A stretch of DNA of 6,125 bases from a virus (lineage: Duplodnaviria; Heunggongvirae; Uroviricota; Caudoviricetes), in the IMG/VR virus record IMGVR_UViG_2695420564_000002, positions 1-6,125 of that record. One strand, given 5' to 3'. The notes under the pieces are model-generated. The model ran no database searches. It saw only the letters and a list, made by a program, of their open reading frames with translations, and was not told the origin of the DNA. The position numbers and the translations under genes are program-made. Positions 1 to 6,125 of this stretch are shown in pieces; the stretch's first letter is position 1; every line of letters starts with the position of its first letter.

Positions 1-22
1 GGCAGCGGCAACCAGCGGCTGC

Positions 23-258
23 TGATATTCGCCAGATTATTGTCCAGTTGTTCGCGCACATCAGGACGAATACAAGAAATATGAATATGGAAATGGTTTT
101 GCGTACGCCCGGTTCGGGAGTTTATCGCCAGTGCTGCCTTCAATGCTTTGTGCGCCAACACGTGAAGCGGTCAGCGAGTGGTTGTACCGCCATCATGAGG
201 TTCCGGCAAACGACGATGAAACGCAGGCGCTCTTGCGTCGGGCGATTCGTTATAATCG
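23..258 (+). other. Coding-like open frame fragment of unknown identity, not in the frame of the downstream ydgH-like gene
   Basis: Frame 2 is open from the TGA at 20-22 through 258 and translates to protein-like text (…[56 protein letters not shown]). The frame that is clean downstream (48..734 in the ORF track) gives an Arg/Cys-rich, non-DUF1471-like translation here. N at 259, 263 and 266 separate this segment from the ydgH-like sequence. I do not recognise the protein. Confidence 0.25.
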
Positions 259-266
259 NGATNGAN

Positions 267-734
267 GCTAACCAGGGCGGCAACCAGCGCATTACTGCAT
301 TCATCTACAAACAAGATGCCAGGAAACGCGTAGTACAAAGCCCGGATGTGATCCCGGCTGATTCCGAAGCCGGACGTGCGGCACTGGCTGCCGGCGGCGA
401 AGCAGCGAAGAAAGTTGAAATCCCAGGCGTAGCTACCACCGCATCACCAAGTTCTGAAGTCGGTCGCTTCTTTGAAACCCAGTCATCAAAAGGTGGGCGT
501 TACACTGTCACGCTACCTGATGGCACGAAAATTGAAGAGCTGAACAAAGCGACTGCGGCAATGATGGTGCCGTTTGACAGCATTAAGTTCTCAGGAAACT
601 ACGGCAACATGACCGAAGTTTCCTACCAGGTTGCTAAACGTGCCGCGAAGAAAGGCGCTAAGTATTACCATATTACCCGCCAGTGGCAGGAACGCGGCAA
701 TAATATGACCATCAGCGCCGACCTGTATAAATAA
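267..734 (+). CDS. ydgH: 3' portion of a DUF1471 (YdgH/BhsA/McbA-type) periplasmic protein gene; 5' end not recoverable in this window
   Basis: Translation from 267 reads ANQGGNQRITAFIYK…PFDSIKFSGNYGNMTEVSYQVAKRAAKKGAKYYHITRQWQERGNNMTISADLYK, with the repeated '…KKGA.YY.I…GN…ADLYK' signature of DUF1471 repeats. Stop TAA at 732-734. Symbol assigned from family resemblance plus its position directly upstream of a ydgI-like gene, as in E. coli. The part upstream of the N cluster does not continue this protein in any frame. Confidence 0.7.
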   Translation, partial: ANQGGNQRITAFIYKQDARKRVVQSPDVIPADSEAGRAALAAGGEAAKKVEIPGVATTASPSSEVGRFFETQSSKGGRYTVTLPDGTKIEELNKATAAMMVPFDSIKFSGNYGNMTEVSYQVAKRAAKKGAKYYHITRQWQERGNNMTISADLYK

Positions 735-752
735 CTATTCAATTATTATGAT

Positions 753-783
753 AAGGCGGCTTCGTGCCGCCTTTCGCATTTTT
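753..783 (+). terminator. Candidate Rho-independent terminator downstream of the ydgH-like gene
   Basis: Perfect 8-bp stem AAGGCGGC (753-760) / GCCGCCTT (766-773) with a 5-nt loop TTCGT, followed by TCGCATTTTT ending in a T5 run at 779-783, 19 nt after the stop codon. The T tract is set 5 nt away from the stem, so the call is moderate. Confidence 0.5.
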
Positions 784-919
784 AGTCACAAATTTCCCTG
801 TGACCATTGCATGCAGTCACATCTCTCCGTAAAATCCCGCGCTTCAGCGGCAAACACCATTTTTATGCGTTTTGCCCCAATATTTATTCTTCCGAACACG
901 TTTTAATCACTGGATATCG

Positions 920-1345
920 ATGGAAAAGAAACTGGGACTGAGCGCACTCACCGCGCTGGTATTAAGCTCAATGCTTGGCGCAGGAGTTTTCAGTCTGCCA
1001 CAAAATATGGCGGCAGTTGCCAGCCCGGCAGCATTGCTCATCGGTTGGGGCATCACAGGCGCAGGCATTTTATTACTGGCCTTCGCGATGCTGATTCTTA
1101 CGCGCATTCGTCCCGACCTTGACGGAGGTATCTTTACCTACGCCCGTGAAGGTTTTGGCGAGCTAATCGGCTTCTGCTCCGCGTGGGGATACTGGCTGTG
1201 CGCGGTTATCGCCAACGTTTCCTATCTGGTGATCGTCTTTTCCGCATTAAGTTTCTTCACCGATACACCAGAACTACGCCTGTTTGGCGATGGCAATACC
1301 TGGCAATCGATCGTCGGCGCATCAGCATTATTGTGGATTGTTCAC
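920..1345 (+). CDS. ydgI: 5' part (about 142 codons) of an APC-superfamily amino-acid/polyamine antiporter (arginine:ornithine-antiporter-like); truncated at the N cluster
   Basis: ATG at 920 gives MEKKLGLSALTALVLSSMLGAGVFSLPQNMAAVASPAALLIGWGITGAGILLLAFAMLILTRIRPDLDGGIFTYAREGFGELIGFCSAWGYWLCAVIANVSYLVIVF…ALLWIVH, which I recognise as the N-terminus of E. coli YdgI with the typical first transmembrane helices of APC transporters. The ORF-track start at 872 adds an implausible 16-aa leader. The last unambiguous codon ends at 1345; after the N at 1346-1356 the frame runs into minus-strand phage sequence and stops at 1405. Confidence 0.8.
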
Positions 1346-1357
1346 NNNTTGATNCNG

Positions 1358-2623
1358 CGAAGGATTGATGGAAAGGCAAGCATTAGGAAAGGCAACCGGC
1401 CATGAGTCATCAACAACGACCATATTACCGTCGGTAGATTGCGGCACTGATACCATCTTCCACTGAAGCAGTGCTGTTCGTTGTACTCCACCAATTAATA
1501 CTGGAATAGTGATGTTACCTGCACTGCTGGCCAATGCTGTTGCAGCAGGCATTTTTGCCGCTTCTCCCAAACCAAGGTATGTGAGAAGACCAGCTACATC
1601 CTTTCCACTCAAATTAGTCAGCGTATTGTCCAGCGGTTGTTTACCTGCCAGTGCATTAAGCATTGTCGTGGCAAAGTTCGGGTCATTCCCCAGCGCCGCC
1701 GCCAGTTCGTTCAGTGTATCCAGTGCCGCAGGTGCAGAACCCACCATTGCCGCAATCGCCGATTTCACAAAAGCCGTAGTGGCAATCTGTGTATTGTTGA
1801 CCGACTGCGCCGCCGTGGGGGCTGTTGGCGTTCCGGTGAGTGCCGGACTCGACAGTGGCGCTTTCAGTGCCAGCGCATTGTTAATGGTGGTACTGAATTT
1901 CGGATCATTGTTAATGGCTACGGCTATTTCTTTCAGCGTGTCCAGCGTGGCTGGAGCACCATTAATAAGAGCCGTCAGTGCCGCCTGAACAAACGCGGTG
2001 GTCGCAACCTGCGTGGTGTTATTCCCCGCCGCTGGCGTTGGCGCTTTGGGGGTTCCGGTAAACGTCGGACTTTCTTTGGGTGCATACTGTGAATGCGGGT
2101 CCGGTGCGGCAAGATGTTTTGCCATCAGGTCATCCACGTACACCTTCAGCTCCAGTGCCTTGTCATCCACATACTTGCGGGTTGCCAGCACTACGGCAGG
2201 GTCGATTTTCAGTGTGATATTGTCCGTGCTGCTGGTAATCAACACCATACGCACGGTCTGGGTACGCCCGCTGCCTTCAGCCAGTTGCGGCTTATAGCTT
2301 TCCGGGCAGTTGCCCACGGCAATCAATGCCCCGGACTCATCAAACAGGCCCACTTCACGTATCCACCAACCGCCCTCGTTTTCAGGGATCACCTGTTCAG
2401 CAATAATCTGGCTGCTGTTCTGCGGGTCGATATAGAGCATATTCAGCGCAGCCCGGCGTTTCTCATTTACTAATGCTGTCTGCTTTGCGTTCGGCGTTGG
2501 CAATGTTCCGCCGCCATCGCCGACCGCCATATGGGTAATTTTTAAAGGCACACCGAGCGCGGCGGCGCTGGCAAGTTTCTCCGCGCCAATATCCGTCAGC
2601 AGGGTATAAAATTTTGTGCTCAT
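1358..2623 (-). CDS. H: P2-like tail fibre protein (gpH family), N-terminal about 420 aa only; distal receptor-binding part missing
   Basis: Minus-strand ATG at 2623-2621 overlaps the stop of the upstream I gene (ATGA). N-terminus MSTKFYTLLTDIGAEKLASAAALGVPLKITHMAVGDGGG… and the …ESYKPQLAEGSGRTQTVRMVLITSS… block match the conserved N-terminal domain of P2 gpH as I remember it. Two tandem 74-aa repeats follow. The frame runs into the N cluster at 1346-1356 and ends on a stop inside ydgI antisense sequence, so the natural C-terminus is absent. Confidence 0.8.
1648..2059 (-). repeat. Two diverged tandem repeats of about 222 bp (74 aa) inside the tail-fibre gene
   Basis: Protein repeats TGTPKAPTPAAGNNTTQVATTAFVQAALTALINGAPATLDTLKEIAVAINNDPKFSTTINNALALKAP… and TGTPTAPTAAQSVNNTQIATTAFVKSAIAAMVGSAPAALDTLNELAAALGNDPNFATTMLNALAGKQP…. 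On the plus strand both units end in …GGCGTTCCGGT / …GGGGTTCCGGT (about 1837 and 2059) and begin GCCAGTGCATTAAG / GCCAGCGCATTGTTAATGG (about 1648 and 1869). Coordinates are approximate. Confidence 0.7.
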
Positions 2624-3225
2624 GGATTCACTCTCATTGTGTCAATAACATGGACCGCCCCGCCTTCATGCGCGGTGCCGCCAGAAATAATTGTTTCGTT
2701 GATATACGGATAGATCGTGATTTCTTCGCCAAGATAGCTGGCGGCTCCCACCCAATGCGGGCCGCTGGTCTGCAGGTTGATGGACATGCCGATCATGTGA
2801 CGGCTACATGGTTTGGCATCGCTTATCAGTCGCTCAAGTTCCAGATAGGTATCTTCAGTGATGCCCTGGTCCTGCACGCCGATATCCAGGCGAAACGTGC
2901 CCGGTGTCTCTCCGGTCTGCCACCACTCAATAATGCGGATCAGAAAGCCGAACGGCTCCACCACCCGCCGCACGGCACTGGTGGTCCCTTTATGCTGATG
3001 AATATAAAAAGCATCCTTCACCACCTGGCGCTTGACGCTTTCTGTCCAGCCCTCGTCCCAGCGATCCACAGAGAACGCCCAGGCGAGATAAGGCAGGAAA
3101 CTGACCGGACAGGTTGCCGGATTCCACAAGTCACGCAGCGGCACCTGCAGATCAGTAATCCCGCTGCAGGTTTGCGCCAGTCGGCGCTCCAGTGAAGTTG
3201 AACCCGGTGGCAGCAGACTATTCAT
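2620..3225 (-). CDS. I: P2-like baseplate protein gpI
   Basis: 201-aa ORF starting MNSLLPPGSTSLERRLAQ…LWNPATCPVSFLPYLAWAFSVDRWDEGW…GTFRLDIGV…, closely resembling P2 gpI as I recall it. Strong Shine-Dalgarno GGAGGA 4-5 nt upstream of the ATG at 3225-3223. Its stop overlaps the H start (ATGA at 2620-2623). Confidence 0.85.
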   Translation of the reverse strand: MNSLLPPGSTSLERRLAQTCSGITDLQVPLRDLWNPATCPVSFLPYLAWAFSVDRWDEGWTESVKRQVVKDAFYIHQHKGTTSAVRRVVEPFGFLIRIIEWWQTGETPGTFRLDIGVQDQGITEDTYLELERLISDAKPCSRHMIGMSINLQTSGPHWVGAASYLGEEITIYPYINETIISGGTAHEGGAVHVIDTMRVNP

Positions 3226-4126
3226 CCGTTCCTCCGTTGGTTACGTGCCACTGCGTACATGATGCCGCCTGTGTTTTGTTCAGGACCACATCCGCCAGAG
3301 GAGAAGCCAGCTCCACACGCTGCACACCCTCAACATGCAGGGCGGCAAAGATGGCGCTACGGCGAATATCCCGACCAAGACGCGTCTGACTGGCGATGTA
3401 CTTCTGCAGGCTGACTTTTGCCGCTGCCATTACCGGCTCTGCTTCCGGTCCCGGATAAAGAAAAATGGTGGCTTCCACTCGGTACGGGATGATTTCTGCG
3501 CTGCGAACCGTCAGACGGTTAGCCACCGGGCGGACGTTCTCACTGTTCAGGGCGTTCTCCACCACATCCAGCAAGTCTTTTTCTGCTGTTCCGTCGCCTT
3601 CGCGGCTAAGGACAGTCAGCACCACCTCTGCAGGTGCCGGACTGGTTGCACTGGCATCCGCCACCCGACCGTCGGCGCTTCGTGCATGAAACTCATAAGC
3701 GGCAGTTGGCCCCGCAACAGAAAGCCCTTCAAAGGCTGCAGGCACACGCAGGCGTAATGCTTCATCACTTTCCATCACAGCCGCAACGGGCGGTACAGCG
3801 TCATCATCAGCAGGTGTCACCGTCAGGCGTTTCACGTTGTAGTTAGCAGCGAGCTGGTCAAGATCGCCGCCCATCGCGTAAGCCACCATCACCGCCTGCG
3901 CGGCTTCGTTAATGCGCTGGCGCAGAAGCAACTCACGATAAGCGTTCTCCTGCAACAATTTGGTAACAGGTTCAGATTCCAGTTCCAGCGTGCGGATCAC
4001 AGCTTCCTGCTCATCTTTCGGATGAAGCGCCACAAATTCTGCCTTGCGTTCGGCAAGCAGCGTCTCAAAGTCCGGCACATCCACAATCTGCGGCGCAGGC
4101 AACTGCGAAAGGTCAATCACTGCCAT
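3218..4126 (-). CDS. J: P2-like baseplate wedge protein gpJ
   Basis: The ORF track starts at 4165, but an internal ATG at 4126-4124 is preceded by GGAG with a 6-nt spacer and gives about 302 aa beginning MAVIDLSQLPAPQIVDVPDFETLLAERKAEF…, matching the length and N-terminus of P2 gpJ. Stop TAG at 3220-3218 overlaps the I start by 8 nt. Confidence 0.85.
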   Translation of the reverse strand: MAVIDLSQLPAPQIVDVPDFETLLAERKAEFVALHPKDEQEAVIRTLELESEPVTKLLQENAYRELLLRQRINEAAQAVMVAYAMGGDLDQLAANYNVKRLTVTPADDDAVPPVAAVMESDEALRLRVPAAFEGLSVAGPTAAYEFHARSADGRVADASATSPAPAEVVLTVLSREGDGTAEKDLLDVVENALNSENVRPVANRLTVRSAEIIPYRVEATIFLYPGPEAEPVMAAAKVSLQKYIASQTRLGRDIRRSAIFAALHVEGVQRVELASPLADVVLNKTQAASCTQWHVTNGGTDE

Positions 4127-4472
4127 TCTCTGCTCCTGTTGATACGGAAAGGGAAACAGGCACACCGTTATTACGCCGCCCGGTCAGCGCCACCACCATT
4201 GAACCGTCAAAATGGCTGTTGATGGTGATGGAATCCAGCGTCAGCCGTGGCTCCCAGCGACTCAGCGCCACATACACTGCCGACATGACCTGCAGGCGTA
4301 ACGCCGGATTTTGTGGCTGGTCTATCAGTGCCGACAGCAGGGAACCATATTCACGGCGAGCAATGCGGCTACCCTGCGGCGTCAGCAGAATGTCCCGCAC
4401 CGACTGGCGCAGATGGTCAATATCAGTAATGGCTTTACCGCTGGTATTGTTCATCCCGCTATAAAGCGTCAT
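4113..4472 (-). CDS. W: P2-like baseplate protein gpW (gp25/GPW family)
   Basis: 119-aa ORF MTLYSGMNNTSGKAITDIDHLRQSVRDILLTPQGSRIARREYGSLLSALIDQPQNPALRLQ…, with the GPW/gp25 signature and the size of P2 gpW. GGAGG lies about 7 nt upstream of the ATG at 4472-4470. The start overlaps the V stop (ATGA) and the 3' end overlaps the J start by 14 nt. Confidence 0.85.
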   Translation of the reverse strand: MTLYSGMNNTSGKAITDIDHLRQSVRDILLTPQGSRIARREYGSLLSALIDQPQNPALRLQVMSAVYVALSRWEPRLTLDSITINSHFDGSMVVALTGRRNNGVPVSLSVSTGAENGSD

Positions 4473-5047
4473 ACCGGGCCTCCAGTTGTGTCGCCGCCTT
4501 TCAGGACGCCAGTATGCTGATGCGCATCAACCTCGATCCCGTTAGAACTCATCGCTCCGCCGCCCTGGGTAACGCCACCATTGATCACCACTTCGCTGTT
4601 AATGCGCGTGCGGTCAGCCTCCAGTACAAACTCACTGGTTTTCATGGTGATGTTGTCAGCGGCCTCAATGACCATTGATTTGATGCCCCTGACATACCAG
4701 CGCCCGGTGGCGGGTTCGTATTCAAACCAGCTACCGTCAGGATGTTCTGTCACGCAGGCGTCCGCCGACGTCGACGGTGGTGCGAACTGATTCGAATAGA
4801 CAGCGGGCAGCGCAAAGGCGGTCTCCAGATTGCCGCCCAGACTCAGCAGCACCACCTGCTCACCTTCCGATGGTTTCCACCATGTCCGGGCATTACCCGC
4901 GCGCAGCGTCAGCCAGTTAATCCAGTTGGTTTCAAGGTCGCCCGTTTTCACCCGGCAAAGCCAGTTTTCCCGGTCCACTTCGGTGACTACACCTATGCGG
5001 ATCAGATTGGTGATAAGGCGCATGATTTCGGTTAGTTGTGCGTTCAT
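4469..5047 (-). CDS. V: P2-like baseplate spike protein gpV
   Basis: Start placed at the ATG at 5047-5045 (MNAQLTEIMRLITNLIRIGVVTEVDRENWLCRVKTGDL…WWKPSEGEQVV…HQHTGVLKGGDTTGGPV), which aligns with the N-terminus of P2 gpV. The 81 codons the ORF track adds upstream (to 5290) are antisense to the AT-rich block and are not phage-like. No Shine-Dalgarno precedes this ATG, consistent with loss of the normally coupled upstream gene S. Confidence 0.8.
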   Translation of the reverse strand: MNAQLTEIMRLITNLIRIGVVTEVDRENWLCRVKTGDLETNWINWLTLRAGNARTWWKPSEGEQVVLLSLGGNLETAFALPAVYSNQFAPPSTSADACVTEHPDGSWFEYEPATGRWYVRGIKSMVIEAADNITMKTSEFVLEADRTRINSEVVINGGVTQGGGAMSSNGIEVDAHQHTGVLKGGDTTGGPV

Positions 5048-5085
5048 AGATATATGATGACAGCTGAAAACTTGTTTATAACTTC

Positions 5086-5113
5086 TTGCAAATTGTGGTA
5101 TCGATGGTACAAA
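5086..5113 (+). promoter_or_regulatory. Candidate sigma70 promoter with extended -10 for the AT-rich ORF
   Basis: TTGCAA (5086-5091), 16-nt spacer, then TGgTACAAA (TG at 5105-5106, hexamer 5108-5113), about 40 nt upstream of the ATG at 5151. AGGTGG at 5140-5145 is the ribosome-binding site, 5 nt before the start. Pattern match by eye only. Confidence 0.35.
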
Positions 5114-5150
5114 TTGATAAAAGGATAAAAAACAACCAATAGGTGGATAA

Positions 5151-5957
5151 ATGAGTGTTATGAATCCAATAAGTTCTAATATATTTAATGCTGAATTTTT
5201 AAACACCCCGGCAGCGGCACTTGCCGCATGGATTTCCATTATTGGAGCTGTTATAACTTTGGTGACGATAGTTATAAGAGCACTATTCAAATATAGAAAA
5301 TCTCATGATGTAATTTTGAAAAAATCAGGAATACCTGCGTTTATATTAAATTTTTTTCTTATACGAATATCATTAAAAAGGCTGCCTACTATCACATGGG
5401 CTGAAAAATCAATCACGGTTCTCTTTTCACTTCTTTTTTTGTATGCAATTTATATTTTTGGTCCAGTTTTCATCCAAGCCATTAGAACCCCACCAAATAG
5501 CACATTGCTTTATTGGATAAAGTCCGGTGAATCATTTTATATGTCAAAAAAACTGGCGACTGCAGCTACAATATTAACCACTCCTGATTGGGAAATATCA
5601 AAGGATGATTGCGAAGAGTCATCCTCTGCCAGTACAGAGAAGTACAAATCATTAACTATCGAACATAAAGAAATTCTTTGTAAACTACTAACCACTGATG
5701 AAGGGAATGCTTACATTGATGAAGAAGTCAAGAATTTCGTTAAAGACAAATTCTTTATCTATTCCTTTGCCCCAACAACCATATTTATTCTATTATGGAT
5801 TTCTTTGGGTTTTATACTGACCATTCACTATTCTAAAAAAGTTAGGAAATATATTCTGACTGAACAAAAAAATGCAATTCATTGGGCATATGGTGAATTC
5901 AAGACAGAAGGAATCTATTCAATATATCAAGAGTTAGAACGTAAGACTCACCATTAA
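5151..5957 (+). CDS. Hypothetical 268-aa multi-pass membrane protein, AT-rich, no family recognised; candidate phage moron (accessory or defence-type gene)
   Basis: ATG at 5151 with a strong SD, stop TAA at 5955-5957. Hydrophobic stretches at about aa 21-46 ([26 protein letters not shown]), 60-75, 87-111 ([25 protein letters not shown]) and 206-227 ([21 protein letters not shown]). Basic loops (KYRKSH, KRLP, SKKVRKY) fit the positive-inside rule. An acidic soluble region of about 95 aa sits between helices 3 and 4. Two hand-counted 60-nt lines give about 28% G+C against about 60% in the adjacent tail genes. Opposite strand to the tail operon. Confidence 0.7.
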
Positions 5958-5984
5958 GACCCAACAAACGACGCTCTGCGTAAC

Positions 5985-6125
5985 GCACTTCCGCCACGAA
6001 GGAAGACTCCAGCACGCCAGCACGATGACCGCCAGTTGCGGCCGCCCACGCTTTAGCGATCGCCATTCCTTCGCCTTTCGGATCGTTTTCCGGGTGAACG
6101 GCAATCAGCGTCGGTACACCGAATC
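5985..6125 (-). CDS. ilvC: Internal fragment of ketol-acid reductoisomerase (no start, no stop; runs off the window edge)
   Basis: Minus-strand translation [45 protein letters not shown] matches an internal block of E. coli IlvC as I recall it (…[55 protein letters not shown]…). Similarity stops after …VAEV at plus position 5985. The 27 nt at 5958-5984 are unassigned and the frame reads on without a stop into the AT-rich ORF, so the end is not a natural gene end. Confidence 0.65.

Follow-up and report, generated by a model that had tools for sequence, protein, structure and literature searches.

The stretch of DNA analysed here (the window, 6,125 nt) passes from pieces of chromosomal genes through a block of P2-like phage tail and baseplate genes into a further chromosomal piece, and the question it raises is whether this succession belongs to a real genome or to the way in which the sequence was put together. 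An earlier note, made from the letters alone, had described it as a mosaic of unlinked loci. The mosaic is indeed present in the sequence, yet it is almost certainly a technical artefact and not biology. The window corresponds, reverse-complemented, to GenBank WGS contig CCBU01000400.1 in its entirety (contig 400, 6,125 nt; assembly GCA_000940615.1), and the sequence comparisons make it very probable that this is a chimeric contig from a fragmented draft assembly of a non-coli Escherichia carrying a P2-like prophage. Two of its pieces are genuine: a ydgH-ydgI piece of 1,080 nt, and a prophage piece of 4,637 nt that holds genes H-I-J-W-V, a DUF6216 gene and the end of S. Small fragments of four unlinked loci of the chromosome (five genes) have been attached in error to this 4.6-kb prophage piece.

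Overall organization of the contig

None of 5,426 complete E. coli genomes contains at least 80% of the window at one place; its segments match cdh, yegD, ydgH-ydgI, a P2-like prophage and ilvC separately, at five places, and the loci are unlinked in every one of the 5,426. The host pieces all come from the interior of genes, and three of them are 130-132 nt long. The contig has eight ambiguous bases in all (259, 263, 266, 1346-1348, 1354 and 1356), and these all lie inside two of its four joins, B and C, in keeping with the earlier remark that two of the discontinuities coincide with clusters of such bases; joins A and D have no N. Seven of the eight Ns fall where the two parent sequences disagree.

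The marks of a mobile element or of site-specific recombination (IS ends, target-site duplications, att-like repeats, integrase, tRNA) are not seen at the junctions. No tRNA genes, no direct or inverted repeats flanking any junction and no transposase- or integrase-like ORF were found in the window, which agrees with what had been noted of the junctions at first reading. What is seen is the pattern of an assembly chimera: the flanking segments are unlinked in closed reference genomes, the consensus is ambiguous at B and C and also at a bioF/tail-sheath join in a sister contig described below, and independent assemblies run colinearly through C and through the phage side of D, though D itself is common to the sister assembly. 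The accession numbers gave no match in the literature, and an exact look-up of the chimeric products gave none either.

Four abrupt discontinuities had been listed from the sequence. Those at about 259-266 and 1346-1357 are false joins, but 5047/5048 and 5957 are the natural edges of the DUF6216 region, and the list was not complete, a join between cdh and yegD at 131/132 having been missed.

Chromosomal fragments and joins A, B and C

The window begins with an internal fragment of cdh (CDP-diacylglycerol diphosphatase; 1..131, minus strand), 93.9% identical to E. coli cdh, with the match ending at 131. It is followed by false join A (131..132), which is blunt and free of Ns: in an in-register alignment the cdh reference diverges after 131 and the yegD reference matches from 132. 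The internal yegD fragment (132..261, plus strand; about codons 33-76) shares 99.2% identity with its counterpart in E. coli strain ET5 and gives way to ydgH within false join B (259..266, Ns at 259, 263 and 266). At each of these three Ns the yegD reference has a different base from the ydgH reference, and the bases between agree with one parent or the other.

The 3' half of ydgH, the intergenic region and the 5' part of ydgI (261..1359, plus strand) form a genuine chromosomal piece, with the ydgH stop codon at 732-734 and the ydgI start ATG at 920. This piece is 87-90% identical to its counterparts in 5,418 of the 5,426 E. coli genomes. Its best match is to E. whittamii, at 89.5%, and a locus search with ydgI found no species closer than E. 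whittamii and genomes of the E. coli group, at about 89%; the best identity in a search with the YdgH protein was 96%.

False join C, between ydgI and tail-fibre gene H, occupies 1343..1359 and has Ns at 1346-1348, 1354 and 1356. In-register alignment extends the ydgI match as far as 1359, and the phage match sets in at 1357. Of the five Ns, four stand at positions that distinguish ydgI from phage; the fifth, 1354, is C in both references, and an N at a position where E. coli ydgI and the phage agree requires the assumption that the host allele differs there. Searches of viral contigs with the join A pattern and with the join C pattern, Ns included, gave no match.

Join C is contradicted by two other contigs. 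A contig of 321 kb, L104, aligns gap-free with 1357-5993 at 99.94% identity, and ordinary prophage sequence, S, R and the sheath gene included, flanks the match on either side. The sister contig L003 (CDRK01000234.1, draft assembly GCA_000936005.1) is 100% identical to 1357-6125 (4,769 nt) and runs on normally through H to the left of 1357, giving a full 467-codon H followed by a tail-fibre assembly gene; it has a false join of its own, between bioF and tail sheath, which holds all four of its Ns. A 45-mer specific to this variant was found in viral contigs only in the sister contig and in one relative that is 94.7% identical; the assembly of the window itself was thus not located in IMG/VR.

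Prophage segment

The P2-like prophage segment (1357..5993) comprises H-I-J-W-V, the DUF6216 gene and, from S, the 31 codons at its 3' end, and is 99.8% identical to a prophage of E. coli GPEC1405 and 97% identical to that of E. coli B/BL21/C. Gene H, encoding a P2-type tail fibre (1357..2623, minus strand), is present as codons 1-422 of 467, its 3' end having been removed by join C, and matches PF12571 at 1e-64. The RefSeq annotation of the GPEC1405 prophage identifies the baseplate genes I (2620-3225), J (3218-4126), W (4113-4472) and V (4469-5047), all on the minus strand; the Pfam families on the source contig are Phage_tail_fib, Tail_P2_I, Baseplate_J, GPW_gp25 and Phage_base_V. The end of S, a virion morphogenesis gene (5899..5993, minus strand), was recognized from the annotation of GPEC1405 and BL21 together with the S translations, and overlaps the 3' end of the DUF6216 gene by 59 nt. 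With H-I-J-W-V colinear, families that match and S alongside, this is a P2-like tail/baseplate module. Such a block had been expected to be flanked by S and G: the 3' end of S does occur in the window, whereas G is absent from it and present in the sister contig, its absence here being due to the false join inside H.

Most E. coli prophages match the window only from 1553-1563 onward. At this point lies an inverted-repeat arm (1553..1587) of a putative invertible tail-fibre C-terminal segment, and the break in similarity at 1553 is a natural boundary, which appears to be the crossover site of that putative invertible end. In L003 an inverted copy of the repeat is found at 1077-1111, adjoining a resolvase-family gene, and in GPEC1405 the region corresponding to 1357-1587 stands in the opposite orientation.

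DUF6216 gene between V and S

Between V and S is a low-GC insert (5048..5957, plus strand) made up of a DUF6216 gene (5151-5957; PF19723 match) and its upstream region. The GC content drops from 0.56 to 0.33 at 5047/5048, and the gene lies on the strand opposite to V and S. V-DUF6216-S is contiguous in 111 complete E. coli genomes, and in about 900 other genomes that have this V the match ends near 5049, as it also does in the free phages of the phage collection (Cartapus, KP12), which are without the DUF6216 gene. Reading the contexts of the exact protein gave V-DUF6216-S-R in nine of ten and DUF6216-S-R in all ten. Deviant composition, an orientation of its own and presence/absence polymorphism together suggest that this gene is a moron, and 5047/5048 and 5957 are best read as the natural edges of a horizontally acquired gene in a variable V-S slot. 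The earlier note had made the moron reading depend on the linkage in this contig being real. It does not so depend, since V-DUF6216-S is found in the 111 complete genomes and in the contexts of the exact protein just given. The DUF6216 gene had no PADLOC match, and the sole literature match for DUF6216, a work on wastewater nitrogen removal, is not about this protein. The V-DUF6216-S arrangement is genuine and widespread, and studies of the accessory gene can use well-assembled genomes instead of this contig.

Join D

A further break had been placed at 5957-5985. Position 5957 is the DUF6216 stop and 5899-5993 is still prophage, but there is a true break about 30 nt away, at 5986-5993, where in-register alignment shows an 8-nt string, CACTTCCG, common to both parents. 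Beyond it is an internal fragment of ilvC (5994..6125, minus strand; about codons 168-214 of 491, counting the shared 5986-5993), which reaches the contig end; 5986-6125 is 92.9% identical to E. coli ilvC and has a KARI_N Pfam match. The join and an identical contig end are also found in the second assembly, GCA_000936005.1, in the sister contig. In an index of 153 billion genes the fused 74-aa product of the join is on two contigs only; the exact join pattern is absent from species-representative genomes and metagenome contigs, and its one match among viral contigs is again the sister contig.

Being common to the sister contig, the S/ilvC join is the only one that is not independently contradicted. 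Its phage side is contradicted by L104, by L091, which is 100% identical over 5899-5993 and runs on into the rest of an intact S past the point of the join, and by the 111 E. coli genomes. Join D is false, or at least unverified.

Recurrence in GCA_000936005.1 would favour a real junction if the two assemblies were independent. An 8-nt identity is also expected from microhomology-mediated recombination.

Origin of the joins

The proposal that fits these observations best is that an assembly or consensus step linked the ydgH-ydgI and prophage pieces to each other, and that the same step would have added fragments of about read length from cdh (131 nt), yegD (130 nt) and ilvC (132 nt). At the two joins with Ns, reads or contig ends of both parent loci may have overlapped by a few bases, the consensus N probably being written mainly at conflicting positions; the particular step in the software, or a chimera formed in vitro beforehand, is what we infer from this pattern. 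A chimeric contig was among the alternatives first offered, and it is the one supported, given the draft source, the scraps of about 130 nt, the Ns and the independent contigs through 1357 and 5993; a degraded remnant and a constructed sequence are not. An artificial benchmark composite was rejected on the identity of the window with a deposited contig. Ligation at restriction sites (GATC) was considered, both N clusters containing "gatn", and rejected, joins A and D being without such a site.

The joins might instead be physical chimeras made in vitro, by ligation, PCR or amplification in the library, and then assembled faithfully with no software mis-join. Template switching would give a blunt join such as A and one with 8-nt microhomology such as D, and the scraps, at 130-132 nt, are read-sized. 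Faithful sequencing, on the other hand, would not put Ns where the parents disagree, and a single molecule rarely attains consensus coverage; this origin is thus rather unlikely, and, being still an artefact, would change nothing biologically.

Less likely by a good margin is that D alone is real, A, B and C being artefacts: in this lineage an illegitimate recombination event mediated by microhomology would have cut the prophage short within S and linked it to ilvC. That the same junction and contig end occur in two assemblies, that identity at the join is perfect over 8 nt and that no N stands there all speak for it. Against this, the ilvC piece ends the contig in both assemblies and at 132 nt is in the size class of the cdh (131) and yegD (130) scraps, and the 100% identity of the two contigs over 4,769 nt, together with the N-marked false joins that each of them has, points to a strain, a read set or a pipeline in common. 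Moreover, the fused product is on no other contig in the 153-billion-gene index, S is intact in the closest prophages, and ilvC would be truncated at about residue 214. That D should be a genuine scar -- a prophage interrupted within S and continuing in frame into the N-terminal portion of ilvC, captured independently in assemblies of two isolates, in one non-coli Escherichia lineage -- is very unlikely. As for the whole arrangement being real, a rearranged and degraded prophage remnant among shuffled chromosomal fragments, it has nothing specific in its favour beyond presence in a deposited sequence and can be set aside with near certainty, for it needs five genes, cdh, yegD, ydgH, ydgI and ilvC, each to be interrupted internally and to leave pieces of 130 to 1,080 nt, there are no mobile-element ends, the sister contig speaks against join C, the Ns fall exactly at joins, and none of the adjacencies occurs in the 5,426 genomes.

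The chimeric contig, then, matters mainly as quality control. No biology is to be read from the adjacency of cdh, yegD, ydgH-ydgI, prophage and ilvC in CCBU01000400.1, and ORFs fused or truncated across the joins are likewise without biological meaning. The contig family has entered IMG/VR with a false host-phage junction, by which studies of integration sites or of host range could be led astray.

Comparison with known systems

The contig resembles other mis-joined contigs of draft bacterial assemblies in that unlinked loci are joined within genes, with ambiguous bases at joins and read-sized scraps at contig ends, and in that joins are contradicted by other assemblies; it differs in that the S/ilvC join is repeated in a second deposited assembly, which is unusual unless data were shared. 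The putative invertible tail-fibre end recalls the Gin/Cin/Pin-type segments (Mu G, P1 C): in L003 a resolvase-family invertase adjoins two opposed tail-fibre C-terminal cassettes bounded by the 35-nt inverted repeat, and one cassette is seen in both orientations in different genomes. The window, by contrast, has one repeat arm (1553-1587) and no invertase. The prophage segment follows the P2-like (Peduoviridae) tail/baseplate module in its order H-I-J-W-V, a low-GC non-structural gene, and S-R. The variable V-S slot of these prophages, which in P2 is the position of orf30, differs here in carrying a gene for a DUF6216 membrane protein.

Nature of the contig and anatomy of its joins

By exact look-up in the indexed public assemblies, the product encoded across the right-hand junction is found on only two contigs, CCBU01000400.1 (6,125 nt, assembly GCA_000940615.1) and CDRK01000234.1 (7,023 nt, assembly GCA_000936005.1). 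The former, when reverse-complemented, is identical to the window, which is therefore an entire deposited draft contig. None of 5,426 complete E. coli genomes carries at least 80% of it at one site (megablast), and its segments map separately: an internal, antisense fragment of cdh (1-131, 93.9% identity), an internal fragment of yegD (132-261), the 3' half of ydgH with the intergenic region and the 5' part of ydgI (261-1359, 87-90%, an adjacency seen in 5,418 genomes), a piece of P2-like prophage (1357-5993), and an internal fragment of ilvC (5986-6125, 92.9%). The mosaic is almost certainly an artefact of false joins, which bears out the possible misassembly proposed in the earlier note.

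To map the joins, the window was aligned in register against references in which each parent sequence runs on. At join A (131/132), overlooked in the earlier note, cdh gives way bluntly to yegD. Join B (259-266), from yegD to ydgH, has Ns at 259, 263 and 266, and the parents differ at all three. Join C (1343-1359), from ydgI to the tail-fibre gene H, includes a CAC...GCG common to both; Ns at 1346-1348 and 1356 mark a conflict between the parents (TTT/T vs AGA/A), and a further N lies at 1354, though both references have C there. Join D (5986-5993) is the 8-nt string CACTTCCG, common to S and ilvC; it has no Ns, and the S-ilvC fusion is in frame. (Gene callers report the S tail plus ilvC fragment, 5899-6123 on the minus strand, as a 74-aa partial product.) The ambiguous bases in the whole 6,125 nt number eight, all in joins B and C, in keeping with the earlier remark that two discontinuities coincide with such bases; two independent N clusters would both land by chance within the roughly 25 nt of junction with a probability of the order of 1e-5. 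As had also been noticed, tRNAs, flanking repeats and transposase or integrase ORFs are absent from all four joins. The junctions listed earlier at 259-266 and between ydgI and H stand, while those at 5047/5048 and 5957 are natural: what had been read as a junction at 5957-5985 is the stop of a DUF6216 gene, and prophage DNA runs on to 5993. With 1553, there are three natural boundaries beside the four true joins.

The false joins lie exactly at the ends of similarity to genuine loci, with Ns mostly at sites of parental disagreement. A consensus step may have placed an N wherever reads or contig ends of two loci clashed over a short chance overlap, with contig ends being extended by, or merged with, read-sized pieces; the primary error would lie in the software or in chimeric library molecules. 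The small host scraps are similar in size (1-131, 131 nt; 132-261, 130 nt; 5994-6125, 132 nt). These read-length-like sizes point to single reads or minimal contigs added onto contig ends.

The prophage block and the host pieces

The genuine content is an ordinary P2-like prophage module, already well represented: H, cut off (1357-2623), then I, J, W and V (to 5047), the DUF6216 gene (5151-5957, on the strand opposite to V and S) and the final 31 codons of S (5899-5993). Over 1357-5993 the window is matched by an independent contig of 321 kb, DAQCTW010000003.1, in a single ungapped alignment at 99.94%; the flanks of that contig on either side are ordinary P2-like prophage. E. coli GPEC1405 matches 1553-5993 at 99.8%, and the prophage of E. 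coli B/BL21/C is 97% identical.

In the prophage, identity to E. coli prophages reaches 99.8-99.9%, against only about 87-94% to E. coli in the chromosomal fragments; the ydgH-ydgI piece is about 89% identical to E. whittamii and likewise to the other Escherichia representatives returned. The host would for this reason appear to be a non-coli Escherichia, and the contrast would imply that it carried a recently shared P2-like phage, though the two identities could possibly come from a mixed sample. For the yegD fragment the one match, at 99.2%, is a single "E. coli" genome, that of strain ET5 (sediment, China); megablast did not pick it up in the remaining complete E. coli genomes, and the ydgH-ydgI piece matches none of them at more than 95%. 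This suggests a divergent yegD allele common to ET5 and the source species.

The sister contig and junction D

CDRK01000234.1, also present as IMGVR_UViG_2695420687_000004, is 100% identical to window 1357-6125, including junction D and the final base. To the left of 1357 it continues not into ydgI but into the remainder of H (467 codons), after which come a gene for tail-fibre assembly, a second cassette in opposed orientation, an invertase of the resolvase family and the beginning of the sheath gene; the 321-kb contig agrees with it there. Join C is thus directly contradicted. This sister contig has a false join of its own (positions 1-75), at which a 68-nt bioF fragment, 89.7% identical to E. 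coli, abuts the sheath gene with four Ns (69, 70, 73, 74), bioF and sheath differing at all four; the artefact signature therefore recurs in a second assembly, at another location. IMG/VR includes this contig among its viral genome fragments, with two false host-phage joins (bioF-sheath and S-ilvC), and studies of integration sites or of host assignment could be misled by it.

Junction D is the only join uncontradicted by another assembly of the same material, and might be read as a real microhomology-mediated scar. We consider this very improbable. The 132-nt ilvC piece ends both contigs and falls in one size class with the scraps of cdh (131 nt) and yegD (130 nt). Shared reads, strain or pipeline are likely, since the contigs show no difference over 4.8 kb and both assemblies have similar defects. 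The fused product is on no further contig of the index, and S is intact in the closest prophages, among them IMGVR_UViG_2695420564_000015, with 100% identity over 5899-5993. (It is a viral fragment of 3,150 nt from another genome in the same IMG batch, and its two ends coincide exactly with gene boundaries, one at the S stop and one where the head-completion gene ends; the contig it was taken from may be a further chimera or a member of the same strain set.) A chromosome excerpt, or the constructed sequence suggested earlier, is ruled out by the identity to a deposited contig.

Natural boundaries in the prophage

What shows as a break in similarity at 1553 is an arm (1553-1587) of an inverted repeat 35 nt long which, judged from sequence, bounds a putative invertible segment encoding the tail-fibre C-terminus, and is a natural boundary. 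E. coli GPEC1405 has the window cassette (1357-1587) the other way round. In the sister contig (positions 455-1138, 1077-1111 and 2451-2485) two opposed cassettes beside the invertase are enclosed by an inverted repeat of 35 nt (88.6%).

The drop in GC at 5048-5957 (0.33 vs 0.56) is the DUF6216 gene between V and S, a natural boundary and not a false join. The index has the exact protein in 747 blocks; V-DUF6216-S-R was seen in 9 of 10 contexts read and DUF6216-S-R in all 10. The contiguous V-DUF6216-S occurs in 111 of 5,426 complete E. coli genomes, so the earlier concern that a moron reading of the gene hinges on doubtful linkage is unfounded. In about 900 other E. coli genomes with the same V the match ends near 5049, and in isolated phages, Cartapus and KP12 among them, it is restricted to 1553-5049. 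The gene overlaps the 3' end of S by 59 nt, and its product has several hydrophobic stretches. A PADLOC search gave no hit for it, and the sole paper containing the term DUF6216 deals with wastewater nitrogen removal. It may be an accessory or exclusion gene; its place between S and V is the known variable slot of P2-like phages, the position of orf30 in P2.
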